The notes under the pieces are model-generated. The model was not told the DNA's origin. It was given only the letters and a program-made list of their open reading frames with translations, and made no database searches. Of a stretch of DNA of 57,512 nt, positions 5,901-20,027 are shown piece by piece. Position 1 is the first letter of the stretch; each line of letters opens with the position of its first letter. The position numbers and the translations under genes are program-made. Origin of the DNA: a virus; IMG/VR virus record IMGVR_UViG_3300037225_000305, one strand, 5' to 3'.

Positions 5901-5901
5901 G

Positions 5902-6543
5902 CTATGCCGATTTCTCCGCGATGGCGGGCAGTGTTCGCATGGCGGTGGACAGTTCCTTGATGCCAGCTTCGAATGCCGGGAGTTCGACCCCTCCGGGGTT
6001 GACTCCCTGCATGTCTGCCTTGGCTTGCGCGATGGCGGTGTTCGTGACGGGCACGTTGACGGTGAAGCCGCCCCCGGTCTTGTCGGTCTGCCGCGTGACT
6101 TCCATGAACAGGCGGCGGTCTGCGATGCCGTCCGGTTTCGACGCCTGGTTAGCCATCGCTATCGCCACCCGGCCAGCCTGCCGTGCCGCGACCGTGGCGA
6201 TGACAGTGCGCGTGATGTCGAAGCTGTAGCGGTGGAGGACGCGAGAAATGGCCCCGAAGCAGTCCGAGCGGTTTGTGCCCGATAGTTCGCAAATGCGTTC
6301 GAAGGAAGTAGCGGAAGCGCGGCGGGACTGAATCTCGAAGGTCTCGACGAACTTGCGCATGTCTTCCTCGCCCTTTAGGAGTTCGACGACGCGCCTGCGG
6401 GTGTCGGTCGGCTTCTCGCTGGGCTCCTGAATGAGTCCAACCATACTATCAAGGGAACCATCATACCGTGGCGCTATGTGGTCACCGAGCATCCCGAGCA
6501 CCTTGGAATCCTTGCCGATCACATTGGGGTCTTTCTTTGCCAT
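5902..6543 (-). CDS. Putative terminase small subunit (213 aa)
   Basis: Immediately upstream of terL (stop 5902, terL ATG 5900); AGGAGA RBS. Position-based call only. Confidence 0.4.
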   Translation of the reverse strand: MAKKDPNVIGKDSKVLGMLGDHIAPRYDGSLDSMVGLIQEPSEKPTDTRRRVVELLKGEEDMRKFVETFEIQSRRASATSFERICELSGTNRSDCFGAISRVLHRYSFDITRTVIATVAARQAGRVAIAMANQASKPDGIADRRLFMEVTRQTDKTGGGFTVNVPVTNTAIAQAKADMQGVNPGGVELPAFEAGIKELSTAMRTLPAIAEKSA

Positions 6544-6582
6544 GCCTTACTCTTCTCCTGCCTGTTGAATTTTGCAGGCATG

Positions 6583-6711
6583 TTACGAATAAAATACGTT
6601 GCCTACGGCGTGGGCAGTTTCGCCGCCTCCCCCGCTTGGTGGAGGCGTTATCTGTGCGTGGACAGCCGAGGCAAATGCTAAACACAGAGCAATGGACACC
6701 AAAATCTTCAT
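6583..6711 (-). CDS. 42-aa signal-peptide ORF resembling the N-terminus of the fibre-like protein 52062..53066 (possible gene fragment)
   Basis: Hand translation MKILVSIALCLAFASAVHAQITPPPSGGGGETAHAVGNVFYS; ATG overlaps the upstream stop (ATGA at 6708-6711); AQITPPPSGGGG is shared with 52062..53066. Confidence 0.35.
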   Translation of the reverse strand: MKILVSIALCLAFASAVHAQITPPPSGGGGETAHAVGNVFYS

Positions 6712-7043
6712 TTGAATCCTTCCCTTTTTAGAATACGTAAAACGGACCCCGGATTCCAGCGACCACGGCGGGCGGGGAACTTGGCGAGGTCGAGTTCCGC
6801 CACGATGTCGCGGATAGTTCGCTTCTCGCGGCGCATTCGGAGAATCAGGTCGAGTCCCATGCGTTCGTTCGGCAGGCTCCCGTAAGGCTTGCTGCCTTCG
6901 ACCCGGTTGTTGCGGCGATTCTCCTTGTAAGTCTTGATGGCGATGCGTTTCTTCTCCGCATCGTAGTCTACGATGGCGGTCAGCACCGCACCACGCACGG
7001 AATCAAGAACTCGGTCGAGGAAGACTTGTTGTGGTTCAACCAT
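6708..7043 (-). CDS. DNA-binding protein with recombinase-domain-like HTH (111 aa)
   Basis: C-terminus RTIRDIVAELDLAKFPARRGRWNPGSVLRILKREG resembles the IAxxLNxxGxxxxRGGxWxxxxVxxIL motif of serine-recombinase accessory domains. Confidence 0.45.
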   Translation of the reverse strand: MVEPQQVFLDRVLDSVRGAVLTAIVDYDAEKKRIAIKTYKENRRNNRVEGSKPYGSLPNERMGLDLILRMRREKRTIRDIVAELDLAKFPARRGRWNPGSVLRILKREGFK

Positions 7044-7115
7044 TTATTTGTAGGGCGGGCGGCTCATGGACGCCAATCCCTGGACCGCCCTCCCGCCTTA
7101 GCCCAAGCGGGAAAC

Positions 7116-10100
7116 TCAATTCCACTCGTCCCATACGTCAACTGCCAATCCAGATCCAGGAACACAATAATAGTACCAAGACGGAGGAACGATAAAACTA
7201 CCAGACAATGTAAGCCCCAACGTTGCCCCAACGCTTCCGGAACCTGCCCATGCGTTATATGTTGACCCAGGAGAAGTTGGTCCCATTGAGCACCCAATCC
7301 CTCCTAGCCATGACCCCGCATATCGTATGCTCATGCTCACAAATCGTGGGTTAGAGTTATTATTCTGATAGGTAACACCCAGCGCTCGTGTGGGCTGTGA
7401 AAATGATGAAGGTCCACATGCCGGACACCCTCCTGTCCCCACGGTCAGTTTGGCGAGATATGACCCGGAGGGGCTGTTATCCTGAATCCCATATCCGCTT
7501 GGCGTGTAGACGGCGAGCGTAGCCAGTGACCCATTCCGGTTAGCATCGATTACCGACGTACCCGCGACCTTATATCCCCCGATCAGATTGGCCGACCCAG
7601 CACCAGAAATGTTGCCGTTGCCATCCACTTGGAAGTTGTAAGGGCTCGCCGTCTGGAACGCGATGGCCGAGCCCACCGCGCTGGACTGGACGACGCCCGT
7701 TGATGTCACCGTACCAAAAGTAGCTGCTCCCGAAGAATTGATCGTCCCTGCTACATCCAATGTGTACGAAGGGCTCGCCGTCCCGATGCCGACGTTGCCG
7801 TTGGAACTAAGGCTCATTACTGTAACCTCGGTGGTTGGTCCCGCACTGTTAGCGAGCTTAATATCAAGACGTGTGTTGGCATCGCTAGTGCCGATGTTAT
7901 ACCTTCCAAGAGCAAAAGCAGCAGCCGTCGCCTGCGATACATTCGCCGTGCCAGGTCTCGTAAGAATCAGTTCCGTTTCACTGGTGTAATCTTGCGTGAT
8001 GGCAGACCCAGCAATTTCCACTTTGGCGTGAGGAATAGTCGTGCCGATGCCGACGTTACCGCCGTTGTAATAAACCGACGTGCCGCTTGTAAGCCACGGG
8101 GAAATGTTCTGCCACGTGGTCCCGTTATAGACTTTGGCTGTCCCTGATCCAGTATCGAAGTATTGTCCACCAGCGTGTATGGCATCGCCTGTGGTGAGTG
8201 CCGGGACTCCACTGCTATTTCCAGTCTGAATATAATTCTTCGCAGTGAAGGACAATGCTGCCATGCCTCCTACTAGGGTTCCGCCGAAATTGACGGGCTG
8301 AAAACAGTTATACTGTGCGCAAGCAATCGACACGAAACCCGCATCCGATTGAACAAACCCAGTGGAGACGGCAAGGCCAGCGTTCGCCGAACTCAGCGCA
8401 TTAACGGTCAACAGTTGCGTCGAGTTGTTCCAAGTGAAGTTGGAAGACCCCCCGAATGCGCCGGAGTTATTGAACTGGACTTGCGTGTTGGACCCACCAG
8501 GAGTTCCCCCGCCCCCGCCGAGCGCGGCATAGGCACCGCCGTTTTGTGAAACCAGCAACGTGTGCGTCGAGCTGCTCGCGTAGATGCGCGCCTGCCCCGC
8601 TGCCGAAAGTGCTGGCGCGGCCTCTTCGGCCAAGAACAGCGAGTCTCCAGCGTAGATCCACTTGCCTTCGACTCCACCATTCGGAGCCTGAACCGCGTTT
8701 ACCAAACTGCTGGGGGTCTCGAACCCTGAGTCGGACTGCACGTACCCGTTGGTCACGTTGATGCCCGCGATGGCAGACGGCGTGGTGACGTTCAAAAGCG
8801 TGGAAGCAGCCGTCCAAGTCAACGCGCTGGACCCTCCGAAAGACCCTGCGCTGTTGAACTGGATATTGGTACTCGCGCCACCTGGGGATGTCGCGCCACC
8901 TGTCGCCAGCGCAACGTACGCCGACCCATTCCAGATTTGCGGGTTTCCTGCCACTGTGTCCCAGTACAGCAGTCCGGGGTGCTGTGCATCCGATGTCGTC
9001 AGGGATGGAGCCCCCGCATGACTTCCGATCTGGATATAGTTGGCCGCCGTGAAGGACAGAGCCGCAGCACCCCCTGTTGGTGCCTGCACGCAGTTGTATT
9101 GTACACAGGTTCCAGGAGTGGCGATGAATCCCTGGTCGGCCTGCACGAAGCCGCTCCCTACAGCAATGCCTGCGACCGAAGAACTGAGCGCCTGTACCGT
9201 CAGAAGGTGAGTCCCAGAGTTGTAGTAGAAATATGTGTCGCCGCCGAGGGTGCCGGAGTTATTGAACTGCACAGAAGTGTTGACTCCGCCTGGGGTGCCG
9301 CCACCACCAAACGCAGAGTAGGCACCGCCGTTCTGGCTGATGAGCAAATGATGTGTGCTGCTGTCCGCATAGACCCGCGCTTGCCCTGCCGCCGACAGCG
9401 CGGGGGCAGTCTCTTCCGCCAAAAACAACGAGTCCGTACCGATCAGCCATTTCGCGGTTACGCCCCCATTTGGCGTCTGAATTGAATTGGTGTTGGTCCC
9501 GGTGGAGAGAAACCCCACCGTGGCTAGCGCGTACCCGGTAATCGTCAACTGTCCCGGCCCGTCGCTCCACGTCAGTTTGGCCGAACCGGCAAACGAACCG
9601 GAATCGTTGTACTGAATCTGCGTGTTCCCGCCTCCGGGAGTCCCTCCACCGCCGCCACCCGCGAAATCAACCGTGTTCCACGACCGCGACGTGTTGTTGA
9701 AGTACCAGAACTTCGAGCCCCCCTGGTACGCGAAGCCCCCGTAACAATTTGCAATCGACTCGATCTGGACACATGAGGCAGACGGCGTATTCAGCCCCGT
9801 GGATGTCGCGTGCGCTTGAAGGTAGATGCCTTGGTCCAGCGTCTCCCCCAGCCGGATGTAGGACCCGCCGAGCAACGACTGGATGCTGTTGTACCCGCTG
9901 TTGTCGGTCGCAAACCCGCCACGAGCAAAGATGTAGGTGCTGGAGTTCAGCCCCCAAAAATTATCCACGTACCCAGGCAACGGCTGACCGCAACTCCCGT
10001 TCAAAGGCATCGAAGGCGATGTCCCTACCCACAACACGGTGTCGTGTGGACCGAACGTCCCTCCCGTCACAGGCAAGGGCTGCTGGACCGGGTTTCCCCA

Positions 10101-10895
10101 TTGGTCGAAACACGGAGACCCGTTGTACGGGTTGTAGTCGATAGGTGAGATCACAAGATACCCCCCATTAGGAGGCGAGACAGATCCGGGAGACTGCACA
10201 ACCGAGTAGCCGCTAAATACTAGGCCAGAACTCGACATATCCTCCGTCAACGTGTTGTACTTCCCGCCACCGAACTTCACCTGCTGGGAGAACAGCCCGT
10301 CTCCAAGTACCGTCGTCCTTCCATTCACAAACAAGCCGAGATTGGTTATCCCGGTTGACAGGTATAGCCCCGTCGTATTCGACCACATGAAATTCGATGA
10401 ACCGCCGAACACGCCCGATGTCCCCACCTGTACCGACCCATCCGGCCCACTGGGAAGGCACGATGCAAAAGAAATGGCTCCAGGGGTGCCGGAATACCAG
10501 CACCCCGTACCGCTCGTAGACGGCAGCGTCCACCCGAACCCAAACACGTCGATGTCGCCGAACGTGACCGCCGAAGGCATAGCAGGCGTGCCGCCCGACA
10601 ACTGCACGTCAACATGCCCATTCGGAGTGTACAGAAAATAGTGCCCGGTGGAATCGGCAGTCGTCGGATTTGAGATTGGGGTGGACCCGGCAGCGTCGGA
10701 GAACAGACTCGCCCGCGTCCCGCCGCTCCCCGTCACGTACACGTTCACCACGCAGAACGGATACGATCCTTGAACCTTCGTGGTCGAGGTCTGCCCTGAA
10801 GTTACGACGGGACGGTTGCCGATCTGGCACCATCCCTGGACTCGATCCATGCAATGCGCCGAGCACGCCAGCGCCAACAACAGCAACGTCTTCAT
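7116..10895 (-). CDS. Large tail-fibre-like protein (1259 aa) with N-terminal signal-peptide-like segment
   Basis: MKTLLLLALACSAHC N-terminus; repeated TPGGxNTQxQFNxxGxFGGSSxxTW modules; NVGIGT(T/A)xPxxxL(E/D)(I/V)AG motifs typical of fibre proteins. Confidence 0.7.
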   Translation of the reverse strand: MKTLLLLALACSAHCMDRVQGWCQIGNRPVVTSGQTSTTKVQGSYPFCVVNVYVTGSGGTRASLFSDAAGSTPISNPTTADSTGHYFLYTPNGHVDVQLSGGTPAMPSAVTFGDIDVFGFGWTLPSTSGTGCWYSGTPGAISFASCLPSGPDGSVQVGTSGVFGGSSNFMWSNTTGLYLSTGITNLGLFVNGRTTVLGDGLFSQQVKFGGGKYNTLTEDMSSSGLVFSGYSVVQSPGSVSPPNGGYLVISPIDYNPYNGSPCFDQWGNPVQQPLPVTGGTFGPHDTVLWVGTSPSMPLNGSCGQPLPGYVDNFWGLNSSTYIFARGGFATDNSGYNSIQSLLGGSYIRLGETLDQGIYLQAHATSTGLNTPSASCVQIESIANCYGGFAYQGGSKFWYFNNTSRSWNTVDFAGGGGGGTPGGGNTQIQYNDSGSFAGSAKLTWSDGPGQLTITGYALATVGFLSTGTNTNSIQTPNGGVTAKWLIGTDSLFLAEETAPALSAAGQARVYADSSTHHLLISQNGGAYSAFGGGGTPGGVNTSVQFNNSGTLGGDTYFYYNSGTHLLTVQALSSSVAGIAVGSGFVQADQGFIATPGTCVQYNCVQAPTGGAAALSFTAANYIQIGSHAGAPSLTTSDAQHPGLLYWDTVAGNPQIWNGSAYVALATGGATSPGGASTNIQFNSAGSFGGSSALTWTAASTLLNVTTPSAIAGINVTNGYVQSDSGFETPSSLVNAVQAPNGGVEGKWIYAGDSLFLAEEAAPALSAAGQARIYASSSTHTLLVSQNGGAYAALGGGGGTPGGSNTQVQFNNSGAFGGSSNFTWNNSTQLLTVNALSSANAGLAVSTGFVQSDAGFVSIACAQYNCFQPVNFGGTLVGGMAALSFTAKNYIQTGNSSGVPALTTGDAIHAGGQYFDTGSGTAKVYNGTTWQNISPWLTSGTSVYYNGGNVGIGTTIPHAKVEIAGSAITQDYTSETELILTRPGTANVSQATAAAFALGRYNIGTSDANTRLDIKLANSAGPTTEVTVMSLSSNGNVGIGTASPSYTLDVAGTINSSGAATFGTVTSTGVVQSSAVGSAIAFQTASPYNFQVDGNGNISGAGSANLIGGYKVAGTSVIDANRNGSLATLAVYTPSGYGIQDNSPSGSYLAKLTVGTGGCPACGPSSFSQPTRALGVTYQNNNSNPRFVSMSIRYAGSWLGGIGCSMGPTSPGSTYNAWAGSGSVGATLGLTLSGSFIVPPSWYYYCVPGSGLAVDVWDEWN
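8103..9662 (-). repeat. Intragenic (A-B)x2 tandem duplication in the fibre gene, period about 254 aa (about 762 nt)
   Basis: Residues about 412-665 and 666-931 align module for module (for example FLAEE(T/A)APALSAAGQAR(V/I)YA, QYNC(V/F)QxxxxGG..AALSFTAxNYIQ). Coordinates derived by counting residues. Confidence 0.7.
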
Positions 10896-11207
10896 CTACT
10901 TCTCCTTTGTCGGAGCCGCCACACACTGTACCGTCTCCGCATTGAACTGCGCCCCGCCGTCCGCACAGGTCTTCGCCAACGCCTGCGAGGCCGACTCGTA
11001 CTTCGCCGCGACCGGCTCTTTCTTGAACGCTTCCTCGTACCGACGCTGTAGCGTCAGCCAGTCCCGCTGCACCAGCAGGAATTCCGCCCGGTCCTTGTCG
11101 GCAACGGTCGGAAGAGTCTTCGCGGCGTGAACATTCGGCGCAACCTTGGCGTCTTGGGCGAACCCGAGGCCCGTCATCAGAATAGCAATCGTCAGGAACA
11201 GTTTCAT
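10896..11207 (-). CDS. Small secreted-type protein (103 aa)
   Basis: Internal ATG gives MKLFLTIAILMTGLGFAQD (n-h-c signal-peptide shape); stop abuts the fibre gene ATG (10895). Confidence 0.5.
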   Translation of the reverse strand: MKLFLTIAILMTGLGFAQDAKVAPNVHAAKTLPTVADKDRAEFLLVQRDWLTLQRRYEEAFKKEPVAAKYESASQALAKTCADGGAQFNAETVQCVAAPTKEK

Positions 11208-11252
11208 GCCCTTCACGTTACACCCAAGCAAGAAAGGATGCAACAAACTCGC

Positions 11253-11270
11253 ATCGGGGATCTACCTGAT
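11253..11270 (+). promoter_or_regulatory. Conserved intergenic motif, copy a (ATCGGGGATCTACCTGAT)
   Basis: 15/18-nt core GGGGAT(C/G)TACC(C/T)GAT recurs at 17651..17665 and 26961..26978, always intergenic on the + strand. Confidence 0.4.
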
Positions 11271-11354
11271 TGTCAGGATTTTTTGAAAGCGCGACACTGG
11301 TTCTGCGGCGGGACAACCGTCAGGACCGGGCCATCGCGTCAGCTTAGGCTCTCT

Positions 11355-11373
11355 GGAACCCGCCGCGAAAGGA
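11355..11373 (+). promoter_or_regulatory. 19-nt RBS-containing leader repeat, copy 1 (GGAACCCGCCGCGAAAGGA)
   Basis: Identical 19-mer at 11588..11606; each copy ends 4-8 nt before a start codon. Confidence 0.4.
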
Positions 11374-11381
11374 GATTCAAA

Positions 11382-11588
11382 GTGAGAAAGCCGAAGAGCA
11401 CCAGAAATAACGGACATGCTCCGTGTAGACCGGGTGTGTCCCACCGCGTCTATTGCCCAGTTTGCCCGCCATCAATTGCAGGCAACCCCCAAACCGTGCC
11501 GCACATTTCAGTGGGCGCGAAACTCCCCCGCGTGGCCACCTTCTCATGTGGTCATTCAGTGCAGGTAACCGGATCGGCTTATCGGTAG
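11382..11588 (+). CDS. Small zinc-ribbon-like protein (68 aa, GTG start)
   Basis: AAAGGAG 8 nt upstream of GTG; VRKPK...RVYCPVCPPS...FSCGHSV (CxxC...CxH). Confidence 0.4.
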   Translation: MRKPKSTRNNGHAPCRPGVSHRVYCPVCPPSIAGNPQTVPHISVGAKLPRVATFSCGHSVQVTGSAYR

Positions 11589-11606
11589 GAACCCGCCGCG
11601 AAAGGA
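11588..11606 (+). promoter_or_regulatory. 19-nt RBS-containing leader repeat, copy 2
   Basis: Exact copy of 11355..11373; overlaps the stop of the preceding ORF and precedes ATG 11611. Confidence 0.4.
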
Positions 11607-11610
11607 ACGC

Positions 11611-11733
11611 ATGGACACCACGCAAGCACTGGATGAATTGGAAGGGCACCTCAAAATCATCATGGAAGCTCTGCAAGGAGCCAAGGACGATATGCCCACT
11701 CTATTTGACATGGAACCCACGGAGGCAGAATGA
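11611..11733 (+). CDS. Hypothetical acidic microprotein (40 aa)
   Basis: ATG 4 nt after the leader repeat; MDTTQALDELEGHLKIIMEALQGAKDDMPTLFDMEPTEAE. Confidence 0.35.
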   Translation: MDTTQALDELEGHLKIIMEALQGAKDDMPTLFDMEPTEAE

Positions 11734-11876
11734 GCAGCCCATATTCAAAACGCCAACTTTGAAGGATGTTCAAGCATACTACAGAAAATTCGCACGCAAA
11801 GGTGATCTCTATGATCAGGAGGGCAGAAGCCCGCCACGCCCTACGGCTGACCGGCATGACGGGCTCAAAACGAAAA

Positions 11877-11917
11877 GACCCAATCCATCTACTTTCTGAG
11901 GGCTGATGGATTGGGTC
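11877..11917 (-). terminator. Rho-independent terminator candidate for leftward transcription
   Basis: Perfect 13-bp stem GACCCAATCCATC/GATGGATTGGGTC with a 15-nt loop; on the minus strand the stem is followed by TTTTCG. Confidence 0.55.
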
Positions 11918-11969
11918 GTGGTCGGTACCGCACTATTCCGCAGGCTGGCTTGCGACGGTCTGCGATTCA

Positions 11970-12052
11970 GGAGGGTGACCGGATGGTTCCGGAAGCGGTC
12001 CTATAAACCGCAATGCTCTGCCGGGCATGGGGTCCAAATCCCCCACCCTCCT
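11970..12052 (+). tRNA. tRNA-like cloverleaf with long variable arm; nominal anticodon UAU (loop CCUAUAA), non-canonical C33 and C55
   Basis: Hand fold: acceptor GGAGGGT(G)/(C)ACCCTCC 7-8 bp; D arm CCGG-ATGGTT-CCGG; anticodon arm GCGGT-CCTATAA-ACCGC; variable arm ATGC(TC)-..-(GG)GCAT; T arm GGGG-TCCAAAT-CCCC. No encoded CCA. Confidence 0.45.
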
Positions 12053-12097
12053 CTTCCATTCTACCGCCGCCATTGACGCCAGCGCTACAATGAAGTC

Positions 12098-12247
12098 GTG
12101 GCTAACATTCCTAAGGTGCCCCGTGCGGAATTCGAAGCCGTCATCAAGGCGTTACTGGACACACCGCCGATGCCCGCCAGTGCGATAACCGACAAACGCC
12201 CGCGCAAGGACGGCGCGAAGCGGCCAGGGCCGCAGAAGCGCGGATAG
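12098..12247 (+). CDS. Hypothetical basic microprotein (49 aa, GTG start)
   Basis: Hand translation VANIPKVPRAEFEAVIKALLDTPPMPASAITDKRPRKDGAKRPGPQKRG; third-position G/C is high by eye; no obvious SD. Confidence 0.35.
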   Translation: MANIPKVPRAEFEAVIKALLDTPPMPASAITDKRPRKDGAKRPGPQKRG

Positions 12248-12260
12248 CGATTATTGCGCG

Positions 12261-12722
12261 TTAAACGTTCGGCACGATTGATGGTGGATCATCGATCTCC
12301 ACCGCAAATAATCCAGATCGATGATTGAATGCAACATTAACGCGGTCAAAGAAACCACACTGCCCTAGAAGCCCAAGTCCGACATTGTCGAGCCCTATTG
12401 TGAATCCTGCATACACATCTAGGGTAGTGACCCCAGGAAATTCGATTTTGATGGGCCAGTAGAACGTTGGAACCGAGCCGTTTCCTACTCCCAAGGTGTT
12501 GCTCGCTGGTTTTGTGAGCGGATCCAGGCCAAGTTGCAGGGCAAACGACAGGGGGAATGTGCAATGGTCCGCCCCTGAGTCCACAATAGCGTAACACGGC
12601 AACCTGGCACTTCCGTTCAGCAGGTCAATACGCAGAACGGGGCGCTTCGCTGAGTGTCCGGTTGGGAAAGATGGATCTGGCGGGCAAGGGAATACGCCGT
12701 AAGGAATTTGGTGCCAAGCCAC
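12261..12722 (-). CDS. Retropepsin-like (clan AA) aspartic protease (153 aa)
   Basis: Catalytic-type motif AIVDSGADHCTF (DSGA); size and hydrophobic pattern fit single-domain bacterial retropepsin-like proteases; GTG start 8 nt after the upstream stop. Confidence 0.65.
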   Translation of the reverse strand: MAWHQIPYGVFPCPPDPSFPTGHSAKRPVLRIDLLNGSARLPCYAIVDSGADHCTFPLSFALQLGLDPLTKPASNTLGVGNGSVPTFYWPIKIEFPGVTTLDVYAGFTIGLDNVGLGLLGQCGFFDRVNVAFNHRSGLFAVEIDDPPSIVPNV

Positions 12723-12730
12723 CGGAGCGC

Positions 12731-12940
12731 CTAGAATAGAAACGCTGCCGACGACTGGGGCACACGCACAATCACTGGATTTGGCTCGCCCTGTTCCTGG
12801 GCTTTGCGAATTGCATCCTTCAGTTCGGCCGCATATGCCAGAACGCGGTCTTCGTTCTGTGAAAGTGCGACCCAGGCTCCTCGCGGAATGCCTTCGAGGA
12901 GTTTATCGAAGTCATGAACCATCGGTGCCATTGTTGCCAT
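12731..12940 (-). CDS. Small DUF5678-like protein (69 aa)
   Basis: ATG 12940 preceded by GAGGAAGGAG; the pattern GAWVALSQNEDRVLAYAAELKDAIRKAQEQGEPNPVIVRVP matches my recollection of the DUF5678 family, which is often next to retropepsin-like genes. Confidence 0.5.
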   Translation of the reverse strand: MATMAPMVHDFDKLLEGIPRGAWVALSQNEDRVLAYAAELKDAIRKAQEQGEPNPVIVRVPQSSAAFLF

Positions 12941-13073
12941 TTCACTCCTTCCTCTAGTAGACGACATATCCAGCATGTTTGGACTCAGCATTGTGCCCCA
13001 TTTTGGCATCAAACAAGACACTACGCCATAGAAACAGTACCAAGTACTCTTCCACGGATATTTTATTAAATTC

Positions 13074-13102
13074 TTGACTAAACCCTATATTACCTTTAGG
13101 TT
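13074..13102 (+). promoter_or_regulatory. Sigma70-like rightward promoter candidate in an AT-rich divergent region
   Basis: TTGACT, 17 nt, TAGGTT; lies in the AT-rich gap 13022..13184 between the leftward cassette and the rightward early genes. Confidence 0.3.
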
Positions 13103-13346
13103 GCAAGGCAATGATAGCATTAAAGCGTAAGGTGTTTACCTGATCTCTACCTATAGCTGCACCCTATCGCTGACCCAAAGAACAGTGCTGCAAAACACAC
13201 AGCTACCCCGCTTATTGAGTGTTGAAGCTCAGCGCGAGATTCTCAAGTGTATTTGCCACCGGCCTGTCACCGCTACCCATTGTGGTGTGGAAATGGTTCA
13301 GCCCGCACTGCTTGGAACCCATGAGCCTGTTTGGAGGAATTCAGTA

Positions 13347-13508
13347 ATGCACCTGAACGAACGCTACCAATCCCACTGCCGCTGGTGTTGGAAGGTCCAC
13401 GAGGACGATTCCTACATCCAAGCCATTCGCAAGACGGAAGAACATGAGCGGCAGTGCCCCCGCAAGCCTCAAGCCAAGGAACCCGCGCCTCGGGAGGCCG
13501 CAAAGTGA
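13347..13508 (+). CDS. Small Cys/His-rich protein (53 aa)
   Basis: GGAGGA 9 nt upstream of ATG 13347; MHLNERYQSHCRWCWKVHEDD...ERQCPRK. The longer track ORF from 13185 starts at GTG without an SD. Confidence 0.45.
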   Translation: MHLNERYQSHCRWCWKVHEDDSYIQAIRKTEEHERQCPRKPQAKEPAPREAAK

Positions 13509-13531
13509 GCGACTTCATCCTCGGAGTGGCA

Positions 13532-13750
13532 TTAGCCTGCGCTCTCCGCTACCTCGTTCTCATCCTCTCCGACATCGAGCGCAACACCCGACAACGCTGA
13601 TTTGTACGCGGCACTAACGCCAAGACCTTGACGAATAAGGGGCATCGCCACACGGTCCAGCGCACGGATCGCCGCCCACCCCTCCAACTTCCGCGCCGAC
13701 GACGTGATTTTTTGCGATGCCACTTGACAAGTGTACCCCGAAAGGCGCAT
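13532..13750 (-). CDS. Leftward hypothetical protein (72 aa; may extend to ATG 13870)
   Basis: Protein-like MRLSGYTCQVASQKITSSARKLEGWAAIRALDRVAMPLIRQGLGV...; third-position G/C about two-thirds by hand count. The opposite-strand track ORF here is Arg-rich shadow. Confidence 0.4.
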   Translation of the reverse strand: MRLSGYTCQVASQKITSSARKLEGWAAIRALDRVAMPLIRQGLGVSAAYKSALSGVALDVGEDENEVAESAG

Positions 13751-13843
13751 ATTGTTCTCGTTCAGTCTTGCAAGCTGAATAGCAGGAATCTGAGACGACC
13801 GGGACGGCAGTCGAGTCCCGGCCCGGTCATCAGACTCGACCAG

Positions 13844-14155
13844 ATGAACAACGATCAATCGTCCATACATCCCGTTACCGACATCGTAGAAGACCGGATG
13901 CGCCGCGCTTTCGCAGGCGAAGACGTAGGCCTCACTTCCGGATTGACCTACGGTCAGTACTTCCCCGCTCCCACTGAGGACGAGACGCGAATGGCAATCG
14001 CCCGCACCAACTACGAGCGAGGGCGCGATGCCGAAAGAGAAGCCTGCGCCCAACTCGCAGACATGTTTGACACAGGGAAATACTACACGGAAGATGCACG
14101 TGCAAGGGCTATCGCCGCCGCCATCCGCGCACGCTCCCAGGAGTCCCCACGGTGA
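13844..14155 (+). CDS. Hypothetical early protein (103 aa)
   Basis: ATG 13844; strong third-position G/C bias; stop overlaps the next start (GTGA). Confidence 0.55.
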   Translation: MNNDQSSIHPVTDIVEDRMRRAFAGEDVGLTSGLTYGQYFPAPTEDETRMAIARTNYERGRDAEREACAQLADMFDTGKYYTEDARARAIAAAIRARSQESPR

Positions 14156-14523
14156 AGCTCACCTTCAAAACTCGCACCGGCTACCTGATCGAAACATCTC
14201 AGGTTGACACCGAAAAAGAACTCTTCAAAGCCACCGCCAACCTCCAAGCCATCTTCGCCGCCGAAGACTCCTGCGGTTGCTGCCAATCCCCCTACATCTC
14301 CTACCGCTTCCGCACCATCGACGAGAACGACTACTACGATCTCGTCTGCAACGCCTGTTCCGCTTCCTTCCGCTTCGGTCAAACCCGCAAGGGTTCCCTT
14401 TTCCCAAAACGCAAGGACGACCAGAACCAGCCCCTTCCTAATCGCGGCTGGTCCGTCTGGAAATCCCTCCCCGAAGCCAAGAACAACGCTCTCGTTTCTC
14501 AACCTCGCAAGGTGTCGCAATGA
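14152..14523 (+). CDS. Hypothetical Cys-containing protein (123 aa, GTG start)
   Basis: GTGA coupling to the upstream gene; CGCC...CNAC pattern; protein-like composition. Confidence 0.6.
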   Translation: MKLTFKTRTGYLIETSQVDTEKELFKATANLQAIFAAEDSCGCCQSPYISYRFRTIDENDYYDLVCNACSASFRFGQTRKGSLFPKRKDDQNQPLPNRGWSVWKSLPEAKNNALVSQPRKVSQ

Positions 14524-14816
14524 CACAACTGGTCCAGGACTTCCCGCAAAGTCCGAACTCGCCGTATCCCCAGGGAAGGCTCACGACTGATTCCGTGCGC
14601 CCTGGTCTATCCGGCGTCCGCCGCATCCCTGCCTCTGCCGTGTTAGAGATTCTTCAACCGAATCTGATTGAGGCATGTGCCAAGCGCGTAAATCCTCAAA
14701 AAGCCCCCCGTTTAACCCGCTCGTGCAACTCACGTCTCCGGGGATCGGATTCGGGCTCTGTCGCAACCGCCCTGATGTCCGGCGAAACACTTGTCGCCGT
14801 AAGTTGCCCTGGATAG
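14520..14816 (+). CDS. Doubtful ORF (98 aa), ATGA-coupled to the upstream gene
   Basis: ATG overlaps the upstream stop, but the composition is S/P/R-rich and third-position bias fades after about 35 codons. Confidence 0.25.
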   Translation: MTQLVQDFPQSPNSPYPQGRLTTDSVRPGLSGVRRIPASAVLEILQPNLIEACAKRVNPQKAPRLTRSCNSRLRGSDSGSVATALMSGETLVAVSCPG

Positions 14817-15708
14817 TCGTCCATTGCACTGAATCGAAAGGCGCTAGTCGAAAGATGCGGCCACCGGACTACAAGCCGGGAGGGGGTGGGGGGTAGCTCT
14901 CATTGCGCCCGGTTGTCACGTCCTCGCCCCATCCCACCCGTCAGAAACAGCCTGCTCCCCACCGCATCCCCGCCTCAAAAAAACACCGCCGCCCACCCAG
15001 AAAAAATCCCCCCAAGAAAAATGCTCTATCGGCATCAGTAAGGCCAATCGCACGGGAGGAGCCCCCTGGACAATCCCGACGCGGCCGGCCTGAGCCTGGC
15101 GCTCGCCGCCGGCCGCCGGACAGAACAGGACACAACGTCACCACGTGGCGTAGGAGCGCGTGCAGGGTCGATAGGCTGTAACCCACGGTGATACCCCCTA
15201 CGGCGCGCTGTAGGCCCTGGAACGCGCGGGAATCGGCATTGTACAGACTATCAGGGACTATGCCGGACGCCCTCCGCCTATCTCACATTCTGTAGATACT
15301 GCGACGGTATCGCGCATCCCTTTTGTTATCAACGCGATGGGCCGATTGCAGGCCGAATAGCTGCTGGGACGATCGCCGGCTCGCCTGGTAAGCTTGTTAT
15401 GGCCGGCAAGGTGCTCGCGATCCGGCGCGGCGTCTTCGGTTGACGCGATGGCGTTTCGTGACATGTTGGCGTAGTTATGACGGGCGTTATGGCGTGTTGT
15501 TGAGCGGAAAGGGGATAGGTTTGTGTGGGTATTGGAGTACCCGCATTTGGGCACGCGTGATACCCGCAAAGTAGCGTGGCTGATCCCCGCAACGGGGGTC
15601 TTGTGAGGGGGATTGAGTAGGCGCATGATGGATTCAGGTAGGGGAGCAACGCACCTGGCAGATTCAGGGAACAGCGCGCGACCCTACCGGGCCTGAGGAG
15701 GCAATCCG
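14817..15708. other. Coding desert (about 0.9 kb; 1.2 kb if 14520..14816 is non-coding) with several structured or low-complexity elements
   Basis: Only short, Arg/Pro-rich ORFs on both strands. Contains a G-run at 14878..14893, a C/A-rich G-poor tract at about 14921..15022, a 9-bp GC inverted repeat at 15081..15116, a G/T-rich GGCGT cluster at 15429..15495, and phased repeats at 15538..15606. Confidence 0.5.
15538..15606 (+). repeat. Three 23-bp-phased direct repeats T(A/C)CCCGCA-N12-TGA (iteron-like)
   Basis: TACCCGCA at 15538, TACCCGCA at 15561, TCCCCGCA at 15584; spacing is exactly 23 nt and each unit ends in TGA. Confidence 0.5.
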
Positions 15709-16029
15709 ATGCAACGGTACACGATACAAGACGGAGCTACGACGTACACGCGAATCAGCAAGTCTGATGCGCGCAAGATGTTTGACGCGGGAGAGGTATT
15801 CTACATCACCGCGCACAAGATGCGACCTGGCTTCCCTTTTTCGCTGGGAACGACGATAGACGGAGCGCACGTGCGGGCGGAGCGGAGATTGAGCCCCACG
15901 TATCCGACGCTGGAAAGTCTGTTTGATGCGACGGTGACGGAGTTCTGCTGGTACAACGCGAATTGCCATGAGACGGGGTTGTATGCGGCGTTTTACCGGA
16001 TGGCGGAGCAGAAACCGCGCGTGGCGTAG
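15709..16029 (+). CDS. Hypothetical protein (106 aa)
   Basis: ATG preceded by CCTGAGGAGGCAATCCG (the same leader recurs before 16479); protein-like. Confidence 0.65.
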   Translation: MQRYTIQDGATTYTRISKSDARKMFDAGEVFYITAHKMRPGFPFSLGTTIDGAHVRAERRLSPTYPTLESLFDATVTEFCWYNANCHETGLYAAFYRMAEQKPRVA

Positions 16030-16109
16030 TACTGGTGACCGGTGTTTCCCCGATTGCAACGGGCTTTTGCAAGGTTCATAGTGGGGATACGGTTGAGGAG
16101 CCGAAAACG

Positions 16110-16451
16110 ATGGCATACACGATTTGCGATAGAAACGGAGATTGCCGGCCGCTGCGGTTGATTGTTCCGAACGTGCACGGCGTGCCGGAGGTCAAGGCGG
16201 AATTCACACCGTTTTGGTGGGTCTGCGATCCGTGCAATAGCTCGGAGAAACGGTACTCCGTGGAGTATAACTCCGCGCAGGAGACACCGACGTATTTGTC
16301 GTGGTACCAGGTGGTGACGACGGACGATAGCGCGGAAGATGTGGCGGTGAAGGTGGCGTACTACGCGCGGGTGATTGCGGCTCGAAACGCGCTGGATGCG
16401 GCAAGTGTGGAGTATCGGCGTTTGACGGGGTGCGGGGAAACGGGCGCATAG
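16110..16451 (+). CDS. Hypothetical protein (113 aa)
   Basis: GAGGAG about 9 nt upstream of ATG 16110; MAYTICDRNGDCRPLRLIVPN... Confidence 0.55.
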   Translation: MAYTICDRNGDCRPLRLIVPNVHGVPEVKAEFTPFWWVCDPCNSSEKRYSVEYNSAQETPTYLSWYQVVTTDDSAEDVAVKVAYYARVIAARNALDAASVEYRRLTGCGETGA

Positions 16452-16478
16452 TGGAATAGACCTGAGGAGGTCAATCAG

Positions 16479-17162
16479 ATGAGAACACAGACAGTTTACG
16501 TGAAACCGAATGACGCGACGGCGGTATTGCTGGTGGGTCGCGCGTTTCCAGGTGCGCGGGTTTCGAAGGTCGCCATCAACGTGCATGATGCGGGCGGAAT
16601 GGCGCTCACGTCGTATTGGAGCGGTGGGACGCGAGATTACCACGCGGTTGTGCGGCTGGCGGATATGCAGGTTTGGCAGGTGCCGGAGAATGGGTCTGGA
16701 TACAGCGCGGTGGATCGCGCGTTCGGCCCGGCTGGAATGCCGTTAGAATTACCGGCACCGGGCTTTGCTGTGGTGACGTTCACGGACGGTTGCTACAAGG
16801 CGGTATCGTGCCACATTCACAGGGATAACGCGGCGAAACTGATCGCGGCGCCGGTGGAAGTGACGTGGGCGGAAAAGGTTGTTCTGGTCGCTACCAGGGC
16901 GCTCAAGTCGAGCTACTGTGGCGTCAAGGATTACAGGTTTCAGGAAGCTCGACGCGATACCGGCATCACGCGGGCGGAATGGGACGCTGCGGTTTCGGTT
17001 TGCAAGTCGCGGGGTTTCTTGAATGCAGCCGGCGCGATCAGTATTGACGGGCGGAATGTGGCTGGTCACGCGGACCTGTATCGCATGAAGCGCGTGGCGG
17101 ACGATACCAAGCTCGGAGCGGACCGGCTGGTGGGCGAAACCGAAGCACGGACGGAGGTTTAA
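16479..17162 (+). CDS. Hypothetical protein (227 aa)
   Basis: ATG preceded by CCTGAGGAGGTCAATCA; long ORF with protein-like composition. Confidence 0.65.
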   Translation: MRTQTVYVKPNDATAVLLVGRAFPGARVSKVAINVHDAGGMALTSYWSGGTRDYHAVVRLADMQVWQVPENGSGYSAVDRAFGPAGMPLELPAPGFAVVTFTDGCYKAVSCHIHRDNAAKLIAAPVEVTWAEKVVLVATRALKSSYCGVKDYRFQEARRDTGITRAEWDAAVSVCKSRGFLNAAGAISIDGRNVAGHADLYRMKRVADDTKLGADRLVGETEARTEV

Positions 17163-17163
17163 C

Positions 17164-17412
17164 ATGGAGCGCGAAACCTACAAGGCGAAAAGCGGGCGGA
17201 CGTGCTTTAAGCCCGTGGCTACGGAAGCGGAAATGCGGCACGCGCTGTACCACGAGGCGAACATCGGCTGGTGTCTGGCTTGCGGCACGGAAACGGACGG
17301 AGTGGAGCCGGACGCGCGGCGGTACAAGTGCGAGAATTGCGGCGAAATGCTGGTGTACGGGTTGGAAGAATTGGTGATGATGAACCTGGTACATGTGACG
17401 GAGGCGAAATGA
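17164..17412 (+). CDS. Zinc-ribbon protein (82 aa)
   Basis: CLACGTE...CENCGE (CxxC-N17-CxxC). Confidence 0.6.
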   Translation: MERETYKAKSGRTCFKPVATEAEMRHALYHEANIGWCLACGTETDGVEPDARRYKCENCGEMLVYGLEELVMMNLVHVTEAK

Positions 17413-17651
17413 TCGCGACGTTCAACGAGAAGCACCACGCGGAACTATTCGAGGCAGCGCGGGCGGAAGGTTCGGCAATTGGCGCGGCTGTCCGTGAGCA
17501 CGGTTGGGTTGCGGCGGACCAGACGATAGCGCGGGCGGCAACGGGTTGGGTGAATCGCCAGCCGTTGAACAACATCAAGCTGGAAGTCGAGCTACGTTGG
17601 GCCTACATCATCGCGGCGGAAACGGCGGCGACGGCGGAAGTACTGCCGTAG
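17409..17651 (+). CDS. Hypothetical protein (80 aa)
   Basis: ATGA coupling at 17409-17412; MIATFNEKHHAELFEAARAEG... Confidence 0.55.
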   Translation: MIATFNEKHHAELFEAARAEGSAIGAAVREHGWVAADQTIARAATGWVNRQPLNNIKLEVELRWAYIIAAETAATAEVLP

Positions 17652-17665
17652 GGGATCTACCCGAT
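17651..17665 (+). promoter_or_regulatory. Conserved intergenic motif, copy b (GGGGATCTACCCGAT)
   Basis: Starts on the last base of the upstream TAG stop (17649-17651); 56 nt before ATG 17722. Confidence 0.4.
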
Positions 17666-17721
17666 AGCGCAGCGGGAGAAAAGAGCGCAAGATAAGTACA
17701 GCTCTGGGGAGAGCGAAAAAG

Positions 17722-18114
17722 ATGATCGACTACAAAGACATTTCAGACATCAAAGAGCGAAACCGGCAGATGGGGTTTCACTTTTTCGACACGGGCGCGC
17801 TGCGTTTCTTCCGGTCGCGGGTAAGCGATACGGTGTACCAGGGGCCGGGCGGAATCTATATCGTGACTTCCGAGCAATTCACGCTTGGCGAATATGCCGA
17901 GACGCGCAAGTACACGCCGCGCAAGTTCAACTGGGGAACGGGATCGTTTGAGCACTTTGACGGAGAGCCGGAGTTCAACACGTGCTCAAAGGCGGTCGCG
18001 CACAGGATCGCGCGACAGGCGGCAATGATTGACCCGGCAGTGAAGGCGGCAAATAACCTGTCACGCGCGGCGCTGGTCGAAGCGGCTTCAGAAGCGGTCG
18101 CGCTCGGAGAATAG
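17722..18114 (+). CDS. Hypothetical protein (130 aa)
   Basis: ATG-initiated ORF with protein-like composition. Confidence 0.65.
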   Translation: MIDYKDISDIKERNRQMGFHFFDTGALRFFRSRVSDTVYQGPGGIYIVTSEQFTLGEYAETRKYTPRKFNWGTGSFEHFDGEPEFNTCSKAVAHRIARQAAMIDPAVKAANNLSRAALVEAASEAVALGE

Positions 18115-18116
18115 CT

Positions 18117-18323
18117 ATGAGCGGCTTCGATTACATCCTCGGGCTTTTCGTGTGGACCTACCCCGCGCTGCGGCTGGCGCGGTGGGCTCGGCTGCGGCGG
18201 GCGCGAGTGGCGGTGGAGGCGCGGGTTAACCGGGCGCTGGCGGTGTGGCTGCCGGCTGGAGCTTGCGGCGAGGACCGGGTGCGGGTGTATCAATTCCACG
18301 GCTTGGGAGGTGATATGCGGTAA
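18117..18323 (+). CDS. Hypothetical small protein with hydrophobic N-terminus (68 aa)
   Basis: ATG 2 nt after the upstream stop; MSGFDYILGLFVWTYPALRLARW... Confidence 0.4.
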   Translation: MSGFDYILGLFVWTYPALRLARWARLRRARVAVEARVNRALAVWLPAGACGEDRVRVYQFHGLGGDMR

Positions 18324-18567
18324 GGCGAAAAGGCGGGCTACCGGGAGCGGGTAGCCCGTCAAAGCGGGCATCGGAAGCGTTTCAGACTCTCGGGGGAGCG
18401 TAGGGAGCGATAGCCGGTGCCCACTTTGGCGGAAAATGAGGATACGGACAGCAGTACAGGCTTCCAGGTTGCCGCGCGGGTTCATCGACCGCACGCAATC
18501 TCCTCAGCCGAAGGGCGGCCGGCCGGAAGGTGCCGCCCACGAGATTAGGCTTTAAGGAGTCGTAGCC

Positions 18568-18693
18568 ATGTGGATCTGGTGCGTGTTTATCGGGCTTCTG
18601 GCTGTGGATGCTGCGTTGTTCGCGGCGTCGTGGTGGAAGTACCGTGACGAGCGGCGGGAGAGGCGGGCGCGGCGGGTTCGGTGGGAGGACTGA
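18568..18693 (+). CDS. Single-pass membrane microprotein (41 aa)
   Basis: AAGGAG 8 nt upstream; MWIWCVFIGLLAVDAALFAASWWKYRDERRERRARRVRWED; stop overlaps the next ATG. Confidence 0.45.
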   Translation: MWIWCVFIGLLAVDAALFAASWWKYRDERRERRARRVRWED

Positions 18694-18884
18694 TGGCCTG
18701 CATTTGCGATATTCCAGACGGTTGCGGCGGGACAGGCAATCTCTACTGCGAGGGTTGCGGCGGCGATCTGTGCGTCTGCCCTGGCGGTGGCGACTTGGGA
18801 CCGTGCCCCGGCTGCGACGATTGCGACGGCGAGGCGGAAGACTGGGACGACTACGACGACTACCAGATCCCGGAGGACGAATAG
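18693..18884 (+). CDS. Cys-rich acidic microprotein (63 aa)
   Basis: MACICDIPDGCGGTGNLYCEGCGGDLCVCPGGGDLGPCPGCDDCDGE... (CxxC-type repeats, acidic tail). Confidence 0.5.
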   Translation: MACICDIPDGCGGTGNLYCEGCGGDLCVCPGGGDLGPCPGCDDCDGEAEDWDDYDDYQIPEDE

Positions 18885-18885
18885 C

Positions 18886-19050
18886 ATGGCACGCGACGTT
18901 GACATGCGGCTACCAGCGGACCCACCGAGCGAATGGTACGGCGAGAGTGTGTGGGATGACCGCGACATCGAATGCCCTATTTGCGGGGCGGCTGATGCGC
19001 GATGGTGCGACGAGGCCAAGCACGCGGCGGAAGAACGCGAAAAGGCTTGA
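18886..19050 (+). CDS. Small zinc-binding-type protein (54 aa)
   Basis: ATG 1 nt after the upstream TAG; ...DIECPICGAADARWCDE... Confidence 0.45.
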   Translation: MARDVDMRLPADPPSEWYGESVWDDRDIECPICGAADARWCDEAKHAAEEREKA

Positions 19051-19081
19051 CTACTTCCACGTAAAGGTTTACGCTAAGGGA

Positions 19082-19216
19082 ATGCAGATACAACACATCA
19101 AGATTCGGCACTGCCTGCGGTGTGCTCACAAGTGGTGGCCGCGTAATCCGACAACCGTGCCGAAGATTTGCCCGAAATGCAAGTCGGCGGGCTGGGCAAC
19201 CAAAAAGGAGAAGTAG
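19082..19216 (+). CDS. Zinc-ribbon microprotein (44 aa)
   Basis: MQIQHIKIRHCLRCAHKWWPRNPTTVPKICPKCKSAGWATKKEK (CxxC-N16-CxxC). Confidence 0.45.
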   Translation: MQIQHIKIRHCLRCAHKWWPRNPTTVPKICPKCKSAGWATKKEK

Positions 19217-19498
19217 ATGGAGTGGCCGATATACCTGCGCAATAAATCCGGCTTCATTCATCGCGTGGATATCACGGGTGAGACAACCCGAAGTTGGGTG
19301 TGCTCACGGTATGGGCGCGACACCAAGTACGCCAAGAAAGACCACCAGATAGCCACTGAGGATGAATACCGGAAAGACATCTGGCGTGACAAGCACCAGT
19401 ACCGCATCGGCCACCTGGTAGGGAATCGACTGCCATACGAGACCCTGAAAAAAATCGCAGACCTGATCGGTTACGACGAAACGAAGGAGAGCAAATGA
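19217..19498 (+). CDS. Hypothetical protein (93 aa)
   Basis: ATG directly after the upstream stop; protein-like. Confidence 0.6.
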   Translation: MEWPIYLRNKSGFIHRVDITGETTRSWVCSRYGRDTKYAKKDHQIATEDEYRKDIWRDKHQYRIGHLVGNRLPYETLKKIADLIGYDETKESK

Positions 19499-19701
19499 GC
19501 GAAGTTACGGAACGGGCAAGACTGCTGATCGAGAGCACGGCTAAGGCGGCGGAAGAGAAAGCCACGCTGGTAGCCGATTTGAACGCGCAGATTGACGACG
19601 CGAAAGCGGCCTTGGTGGCGCTTGGCGTGAAGCGGACGCGCCGGGTGAGCGCGGTGAAGGCGACCAAGCGGACGCGCAAACCGAAGGGAGAAGCGGCGTG
19701 A
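19495..19701 (+). CDS. Hypothetical coiled-coil/basic protein (68 aa)
   Basis: ATGA coupling; helical heptad-like N-terminus, Lys/Arg-rich tail. Confidence 0.55.
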   Translation: MSEVTERARLLIESTAKAAEEKATLVADLNAQIDDAKAALVALGVKRTRRVSAVKATKRTRKPKGEAA

Positions 19702-20027
19702 AGAAGGCTGGCACTGCCACCGCAAAGTGGCACACAGTTAAGGCCACCGACTATTACGGAGCTTTCGAGTCCATCGGTGATAACAAACTTAAAACCCGCA
19801 TGGATGTACTGGTCCGTTGGCCTGACAAGTCAATCACGGAAGAGAGGCTGATCGTGGTGGACGCCAACGGTTCCGCTCAGATAGACATGAACAACTGTCC
19901 TAACCATTTCAAAACCAGAGCGTTGTTTGTGCGGACTATGGTCCGTGGGTTGGCGGTATTGGTCCCCCTCAATGGACTCCGTGTAGCAATAGCAGCAAGA
20001 AAGCGGGAGCGTAAGGAGGCGGCATGA
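19698..20027 (+). CDS. Hypothetical protein (109 aa, GTG start)
   Basis: GTGA coupling; protein-like. Confidence 0.55.
   Translation: MKKAGTATAKWHTVKATDYYGAFESIGDNKLKTRMDVLVRWPDKSITEERLIVVDANGSAQIDMNNCPNHFKTRALFVRTMVRGLAVLVPLNGLRVAIAARKRERKEAA

Follow-up and report, generated by a model that had tools for sequence, protein, structure and literature searches.

Two small genes lie side by side between the late and the early arm of the phage genome held in IMG/VR record IMGVR_UViG_3300037225_000305, one encoding a small protein of the DUF5678 type and the other a retropepsin-like aspartic protease. What are they, and what might they do for the phage? An earlier note on this DNA had described them as a low-GC cassette in the layout of a moron, with a possible toxin-antitoxin-like, abortive-infection or anti-defence role. 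The record (57,512 nt; the whole stretch of DNA analysed, referred to below as the window) is a complete phage genome with an exact 127-nt terminal direct repeat (1..127 and 57386..57512), a circularised size of approximately 57,385 bp and a circular or circularly permuted organization. Our results indicate that the pair is a real, foreign and mobile two-gene cassette. Tentatively, and with slightly more doubt than confidence, we suggest that it might be an autonomous mobile toxin-antitoxin-like module which the phage carries as a moron.

Organization and composition of the two-gene cassette

The late arm of the phage is transcribed leftward and ends at 11246, while the early arm runs rightward from about 13185, which leaves approximately 1.95 kb between them. 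Both open reading frames (ORFs) of the leftward two-gene unit were confirmed in this interval, on the minus strand. The small gene (12731..12940, -; 69 aa) is the first gene of the pair. The protease gene (12261..12722, -; 153 aa) begins 8 nt past the stop of the small gene, with a GTG at 12722 which is also the start used by its homologues (MAWH..).

The start of the small gene, ATG 12940, is supported by the homologues, as it is equivalent to their MA(P)MV position. It sits 5 nt past AGAGGAAGGAG and is preceded by AAGGAG, the ribosome-binding site (RBS) occupying 12945..12954. A 96-aa ORF beginning at GTG 13021 was rejected as over-extended, since the homologues start at the equivalent of ATG 12940. 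Of the earlier description, the 69-aa gene, its strong RBS and its DUF5678 assignment at the family level hold, whereas the proposed cassette edge at 13021 has to be moved to 12940.

The drop in total GC content is modest (54.8% for the stretch described earlier versus a genome mean of 59.2%, standard deviation 2.6, i.e. the 6th percentile of windows). The difference is clear at third codon positions (GC3): the two cassette genes have values of 0.52 and 0.54, compared with 0.65-0.82 in seven long phage genes. GC3 of the pair being below that of the phage genes is a clear sign of its foreign origin. The low-GC character noted earlier was therefore borne out, and so was the moron layout, with respect to both the placement between the arms and the foreign composition. 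Atypical GC3, a site between the arms and presence in unrelated elements (see below) are all traits of morons.

The pair is also flanked by AT-rich DNA, as had been remarked for 13022..13184; in fact, the whole divergent intergenic region between the small gene and the early arm (12941..13184) has a GC content of 41%. No inverted or direct repeats were found in this region. A candidate leftward promoter (13138..13111) agrees with the consensus at 9 of 12 positions, but three such sites were found where 1.5 are expected, which is not above chance.

The strong hairpin followed by a T-run that had been pointed out at 11877..11917 is present. It consists of a perfect 13-bp stem and a 15-nt loop (dG -23.9 kcal/mol, z -4.0), and the minus strand continues with UUUUCGUUUUG, so that the putative leftward terminator extends over 11866..11917 (-) including the U-run. 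The terminator scan left it out because its loop exceeds the 8-nt limit of that scan. This hairpin with its U-run possibly terminates leftward transcripts, although the protease stop is 345 nt away and two plus-strand genes intervene. A promoter and terminator of the cassette's own are thus candidates at the level of consensus matches, and the hairpin is set apart from the pair by two genes of the opposite strand.

The 3' end of the protease gene contains an inverted repeat with two perfect 11-bp arms 16 nt apart (12288..12325; ATCATCGATCT / AGATCGATGAT), where transcription of this gene converges with that of a 49-aa ORF (ORF49, see below).

Distribution and decay of the pair in other genomes

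A scan of one genome per species yielded 243 loci with relatives of the protease. Pairing could be assessed in 81 loci. Almost all of the best 80 of the scan come from metagenome-assembled genomes (MAGs) of Acidobacteriota (Bryobacterales, Acidoferrales, Terriglobia and Vicinamibacterales), the exceptions being one Dehalococcoidales and one Acetobacteraceae genome. An intact homologue of the small protein, recognised with a hidden Markov model, is encoded directly upstream on the same strand in 77 of the 81 assessable loci, with gaps mostly between -4 and +23 nt, and in two further loci the small gene is decayed or uncalled. Hence, the two genes are conserved neighbours elsewhere. At one locus (L097) a DUF5678-like ORF is placed divergently to the protease gene. 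At another (L034, 3700..4137, +) a different upstream ORF takes the place of DUF5678, a possible partner swap; its N-terminus shows a marginal likeness to VapB5 of Mycobacterium tuberculosis (3dbo_A, E 0.039), and the Pfam family Phd/YefM was not matched.

The surroundings of the pair differ from locus to locus. The flanking genes of 80 loci, 142 in number, match 173 Pfam families, mostly of housekeeping functions, with two IS1595 transposases among them. In a Terracidiphilus MAG (L069, 1915..6594) the pair is inserted between dnaG and rpoD, within the classical macromolecular-synthesis gene cluster. The flanking genes of L070 and L071 are similar in size to those of L069, and the DnaG and RpoD domain families each match three flanking genes. 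Elsewhere the pair lies between a Lactamase_B (metallo-beta-lactamase-family) gene and semialdehyde-dehydrogenase/amino-acid-kinase genes, or adjoins a gene of a chorismate-binding enzyme and one of the glutamate dehydrogenase family. A tandem second copy is present in L008 and L018, and one MAG bears three copies.

Four unrelated phage or prophage contexts were recognised: the window phage, a prophage end beside an integrase gene and tRNA-Met (L001), and two contigs, the only ones in IMG/VR that carry the pair. When the window is compared with L001 or with either viral contig, the pair is the sole shared item. The window copy has 72-74% nucleotide identity over approximately 600-670 nt to chromosomal copies of the Bryobacterales type.

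Decay of the cassette is recurrent. In five independent loci (L002-7, L041, L072, L073 and L076) the protease gene is frameshifted or split next to an intact small gene, and in L056 both genes are dead, the protease with a D-to-A change of the catalytic residue.

The retropepsin-like protease

The proposal that the larger gene encodes a 153-aa retropepsin-like protease with a DSGA motif was confirmed. Its product passes the cut-off of the Asp_protease_2 profile, PF13650 (25.0 versus 24.3 bits, E 3.3e-5), which was the profile check suggested earlier, and the catalytic Asp is in place (D48 of the active-site motif IVDSGADHC, i.e. D48-S-G-A-D52). Alignments were made with 36 and with 65 relatives. 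D48, G50, G120 and Q121 never vary among the 65 sequences, and S49, A51 and D52 hardly do; F56, P57 and the remainder of the C-terminal G-L-L-G-Q-x-G-F-F motif are likewise invariant or nearly invariant.

The AlphaFold2 (AF2) model of the protease (predicted local distance difference test, pLDDT, 90) adopts the single-lobe retropepsin fold. Foldseek matched it to the Rickettsia protease APRc (5c9d, E 1.5e-4, probability 1.0) and, again with probability 1.0, to 4ydg, 1fmb, 6fiv and 2rsp. The matched structures include proteases of human T-lymphotropic virus (HTLV), equine infectious anaemia virus (EIAV), feline immunodeficiency virus (FIV), Rous sarcoma virus (RSV) and human immunodeficiency virus (HIV), and target-normalised TM-scores range from 0.45 to 0.67. 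The profile of the protease family also matches the HIV and HTLV proteases in the PDB. Profile, motif and predicted fold all place the product of the larger gene in the retropepsin-like clan AA.

With the known retropepsins (APRc of Rickettsia conorii, PDB 5C9D; the HIV-1, HTLV-1 and EIAV proteases; the Ddi1 domain) the cassette protease shares the single-lobe fold and the D-S/T-G-A loop; its G-L-L-G-Q-x-G-F-F motif aligns to the I-I-G-R-N-L-L region of HIV protease, and its size is compatible with a homodimeric enzyme. It differs from them in standing alone outside any polyprotein, as a cytoplasmic protein of about 145-155 aa, in its conserved N-terminal extension of approximately 25 residues (Y8, F19-P20, R27-P28) and in nearly always coming with a DUF5678 gene. 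Unlike APRc, it has no membrane or autotransporter context, and no signal peptide or membrane segment was seen on reading its sequence.

A profile search of 1.84 billion representatives gave 904 clusters (50% identity) at E<=1e-10, nearly all of them stand-alone proteins of 140-155 aa, and the only names found in 635 clusters at 90% identity were 'hypothetical' and 'Aspartyl protease'. No DUF5678-protease fusions were present among the 13 longer members, whose extensions resemble miscalled starts or membrane anchors. According to the BFVD, other phages encode small retropepsin-like proteins as well. Stand-alone bacterial proteases of the retropepsin type are numerous and almost entirely uncharacterised.

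The small DUF5678 protein

The window copy of the small protein scores 18.1 bits (E 0.0024) against PF18929 (DUF5678), compared with a cut-off of 23.2 bits. The partner ORFs of related loci match this family at E<=0.01 in 80 cases out of 87 (best 9e-10), and precomputed DUF5678 matches are present at L001, L012 and L014. Judging from these profile matches, the small protein belongs to DUF5678 at the family level. The definition of the module gives this family its first functional context.

The conserved core in 25 close homologues reads P-x-GAWVA-x-S ... Y-x-AE ... GE-x-x-P ... R-x-P, and a C-terminal R-V-P ... F-L-F tail is also conserved. The AF2 model (pLDDT 78) consists of a strand-strand-helix-strand arrangement plus a short N-terminal helix. 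No relatives were detected in the PDB, either by sequence or, with Foldseek on the model, by fold; the top Foldseek matches are ubiquitin-fold domains at E>1, which are not significant. None of the PADLOC models matched the small protein.

A possible toxin-antitoxin-like function

How could such a cassette act? We suggest that the phage may have acquired the module from Acidobacteriota (Bryobacterales-like) DNA and now carries it, as a moron, in the gap between the late and the early arm. The DUF5678 protein would be translated first, followed by the stand-alone cytoplasmic protease encoded 8 nt downstream. Retropepsins act as homodimers, and the protease could be an effector that is active in this form and does harm, or is of use under certain conditions. 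The co-expressed small protein would bind the protease and hold it inactive, so that the pair would resemble a type II toxin-antitoxin module or one of the abortive-infection type. For the phage, the benefit might lie in retaining the element or excluding competitors, and not in making virions. The binding of the two proteins, the inhibition, the toxicity and the benefit to the phage are steps that we infer.

The proposal draws on the retropepsin fold and motif, the tight pairing, the lack of fixed neighbours, the mobility, the foreign GC3 and the decay pattern, and also on the matches of 23 of 36 protease homologues to the defence candidate PDC-M52B (see below). A module that occurs solo, at many unrelated sites, and whose protease gene decays beside an intact small gene fits a toxin-antitoxin-like system. 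A bicistronic pair of a small and a large gene, conserved as a unit at variable genomic sites, is also a trait of this class. With type II toxin-antitoxin systems (including Xre/COG2856 and ImmR/ImmA-like pairs) the cassette shares a small upstream and a larger downstream gene in tight spacing, and it is likewise solo, patchy, multi-copy, phage-borne and often decayed. It differs in that its effector is an aspartic protease, its partner has no known antitoxin fold and no operator signal is seen.

Several observations weigh against this proposal. To our knowledge, no aspartic-protease toxin has been described, nor does such an enzyme occur in any described toxin-antitoxin family. The small protein has no DNA-binding or antitoxin fold that Foldseek could recognise on the model, and it is conserved at least as well as the protease, unlike many antitoxins. 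Operator palindromes are not enriched upstream of the small genes (longest inverted repeat 5.4 versus 5.0 bp in shuffled sequences, 80 loci), and therefore nothing points to the operator autoregulation that is usual in such systems; a DNA-binding antitoxin with a palindromic operator is common in the type II class, though not universal. The partner matches neither PDC-M52A (see below) nor any other PADLOC model. The enrichment of prophages or defence islands around the pair, for which the earlier note had proposed a survey, was not found among the Pfam families of the 142 genes flanking the 80 loci. Finally, the asymmetry of decay (5 to 0) does not reach significance once the 2:1 difference in gene length is allowed for (estimated P ~0.15).

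In the literature no paper was found that contains both 'retropepsin-like' and 'toxin-antitoxin', nor one of relevance to DUF5678 or PF13650, nor one on this pairing. A single-Asp active site needs homodimerisation, and a block of this step is one way in which the partner could act. It is conceivable, albeit rather doubtful, that the cassette represents the first toxin-antitoxin or abortive-infection system with an HIV-protease-like effector, held by a partner of a new fold and widespread in Acidobacteriota, where phages would make use of it. If the protease is a regulated toxin, it would constitute a new enzymatic class among toxin-antitoxin and defence effectors and would show a bacterial means of retropepsin control.

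Alternative explanations

Instead of a toxin and its antitoxin, the pair could be a non-toxic processing system. The protease would then act on a specific target in the cell, and the small protein would serve it as substrate, pro-peptide, chaperone or adaptor. There is a loose resemblance to Ddi1, in which a ubiquitin-like domain stands alongside a retropepsin domain. Such a role would agree with the high conservation of the small protein, including its C-terminal R-V-P ... F-L-F tail, with the failure to find operator palindromes and with the ubiquitin-fold domains that head its Foldseek matches; the latter, however, lie at E>1. Moreover, gene fusions are not seen among the longer family members, and the patchy multi-site distribution, the repeated pseudogenisation and the unrelated phage carriers suit a selfish module better. 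We regard a processing pair as unlikely on the whole.

About equally improbable, in our opinion, is that the pair acts in anti-phage defence or superinfection exclusion as a relative of PDC-M52, with the protease triggered by an incoming phage and the resident phage thereby protecting the host cell. PDC-M52 is a two-gene cassette (FAM_01284>>FAM_00696) nominated as a candidate by 'guilt by embedding' (Payne et al., bioRxiv 10.1101/2024.01.29.577857). Its B component, a profile of 139 positions, is homologous to the protease: PDC-M52B is matched by 23 of 36 protease homologues, with a best E of 2.7e-8. Both cassettes are co-directional, PDC systems were nominated for their embedding in BREX, DISARM, type I restriction-modification or Hma loci, and the pair occupies moron positions in at least two phages, all of which would suit a defence role. 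On the other hand, the window protease itself matches PDC-M52B only at E 0.0034, the A component is matched by none of 25 DUF5678 partners at E<=1, and the partner matches no PADLOC model at all. Whereas PDC-M52 was nominated inside known defence systems, the loci of the pair lie among mainly housekeeping genes without defence enrichment (Pfam), and in IMG/VR the carriers are only two contigs. PDC-M52 is, in addition, itself a candidate only, and no paper containing this term was found in the literature. We did not file the pair as PDC-M52 because the A component is unmatched and the context differs. Defence and toxin-antitoxin-like action overlap and are not mutually exclusive. As regards the functions listed in the earlier note, a toxin-antitoxin-like one fits the distribution, whereas an anti-defence role appears unlikely because the flanks are housekeeping genes and no enrichment in defence islands or prophages is seen.

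The position of the pair, which faces the rightward early arm across the AT-rich region, would also be that of an ImmR/ImmA-like lysis-lysogeny switch, with the small protein as a repressor that is cleaved by the protease, and with transcription of the pair directed away from the early genes. This is very improbable. The same pair occurs alone at many chromosomal sites without a prophage, the small protein has no helix-turn-helix (HTH), ribbon-helix-helix or other DNA-binding fold, and 12941..13184 holds no repeats or operators. A separate HTH protein of 234 aa is encoded at 27017..27721 (+; ORF scan), and neither a tyrosine nor a large serine integrase was found among the window ORFs scanned.

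The neighbouring allo-tRNA(UAU)-like gene and ORF49

To the left of the pair lie two plus-strand genes. The first (11969..12052, +) resembles the allo-tRNA(UAU) genes and passes the gathering threshold of the Rfam tRNA-Sec model when a short stretch is searched (51.7 versus 47 bits, E 4e-9); ARAGORN and a whole-window Rfam gathering run both missed it. Minimum free energy folding gives a cloverleaf with an 8-bp acceptor stem (11970-77 with 12044-51), a 4-bp T stem, a 5-bp D stem with a tetraloop, a 16-nt variable arm, the anticodon loop CCUAUAA (UAU), the T loop UCCAAAU and the discriminator U, CCA not being encoded. A pattern scan gave 65 further loci, and the covariance model built here, which scores the window gene at 104.5 bits, aligns 69 copies (50 distinct sequences). 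In these copies 97.6% of the cells are paired and 21 of 27 pairs show compensatory changes, compared with approximately 46% pairing in slid controls. The window gene carries C33 and C55 at positions where U33 and U55 are near-universal. C55 recurs in a clade of ten distinct sequences whose stems show compensatory changes, so that it is a conserved variant and not decay. Codon supply for the phage by a tRNA-Ile(UAU) was rejected, as ATA is rare in the phage genes (4 per 1000 codons).

The allo-tRNA class was defined by a 12-bp acceptor branch (8/4 or 9/3), a long variable arm and a tRNA-Sec-like D arm, and allo-tRNAs were reported near toxin-antitoxin systems (Mukai et al. 2017, PMC5389517). 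Compared with allo-tRNA(UAU) as presented there, the window gene has the same (8/4) layout, long variable arm, likeness to tRNA-Sec and UAU anticodon; it would likewise be of acidobacterial origin and stands beside toxin-antitoxin-like genes. It differs by C33/C55 and by its setting in a complete phage genome, in which an allo-tRNA(UAU) is now placed.

The second gene, ORF49 (12098..12247, +), encodes a basic protein of 49 aa and is convergent with the protease gene. The earlier note had mentioned it as a convergent ORF abutting the pair; it is indeed present, but it is not an incidental or chance ORF, being a conserved companion of allo-tRNA(UAU). Homologues were found by jackhmmer in L012, in L075 and in 37 of 60 non-redundant allo-tRNA loci (L101-L163), where they are usually divergent and located 12-280 nt upstream of allo-tRNA(UAU). 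They share the core KV-x-K-x-x-FD-x-VL-x-x-L-x-x-x-P, in which F12 and P24 are invariant. The window gene has a GC3 of 0.74, and no Pfam or PDB relative of ORF49 was detected. A companion of this family is without mention in the available part of the Mukai et al. paper (PMC5389517), and its conservation is relevant to the function of allo-tRNAs.

The closest relatives of the window tRNA and ORF49 (L135, L119 and L108) have about 1 kb between the tRNA gene and ORF49. In two of them (L135, 1644..2464, -; L119, 2482..3375, -) this interval is occupied by a gene with a Fic domain and a small upstream ORF, i.e. by a toxin-antitoxin-like pair. Together with the allo-tRNAs reported near toxin-antitoxin systems (PMC5389517), the Fic pair in the neighbouring slot was counted in favour of a toxin-antitoxin-like role of the DUF5678/protease pair. 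An IS1595-type transposase gene was also noticed near the unit of L119, and L135 begins with a C-terminal piece of such a gene.

That the pair, the allo-tRNA(UAU) and ORF49 form one functional unit, e.g. a protease module coupled to a tRNA-like RNA, is hardly credible: although the window, L075 and L012 each combine the pair with a homologue of ORF49 and an irregular tRNA in a space of approximately 1 kb, these three co-occurrences represent three different arrangements, the covariance model detects allo-tRNA(UAU) in only 2 of 88 pair-bearing sources (the window and L075), and the pair is present in none of the 65 allo-tRNA loci. The allo-tRNA was rejected as a part of the pair on these counts, and we take the tRNA/ORF49 unit to be mobile cargo separate from the protease pair, the two tending to land together.

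At L012, besides the ORF49 homologue, irregular tRNAs were observed, among them a 106-nt match to the tRNA model beside a transfer-messenger-RNA-like (tmRNA-like) fragment (5113..5384, -). These tRNA-like items are bordered by an IS1595 transposase gene with a pair of 66-aa and 43-aa (ORF49-like) ORFs and, on the opposite side, by the DUF5678/protease pair. The array possibly belongs to the 'irregular tRNA polycistrons' of Mukai et al. At L091 (2182..2365, +), 1.2 kb upstream of the pair, ARAGORN called a tRNA-Cys(GCA) of 71 nt and, after it, a 'tRNA-Pro(UGG)' of 99 nt; both score weakly in the allo-tRNA model.

Other features of the phage genome

The same phage sequence was recovered from several other metagenomes at 99.8-100% identity, as near-identical contigs of 57,454 nt plus fragments. 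Among the phages of INPHARED no match was obtained by megablast of 5000..20000 or by tblastn of the protease; tblastn of the protease against PLSDB also gave none, and PHROGs and NCBIfam gave no useful matches. A scan of IMG/VR with the flanking proteins revealed no sister phages without the cassette. As the homologues of the cassette come from Acidobacteriota, the host of this soil phage is probably acidobacterial.

Recognisable phage proteins of the window comprise a P22/SU10-like portal, an SU10-type adaptor and the recombination proteins ERF and YqaJ. The ORF scan also revealed a small serine recombinase of the resolvase/invertase type (22757..23455, +; 232 aa). Nearer the end of the late arm, two small ORFs without a family match, of 68 aa (11382..11588, +) and 40 aa (11611..11733, +), are called also in other assemblies, and a possible rightward ORF of 46 aa, likewise without a family match, ends inside the hairpin (region 11382..11906, +).

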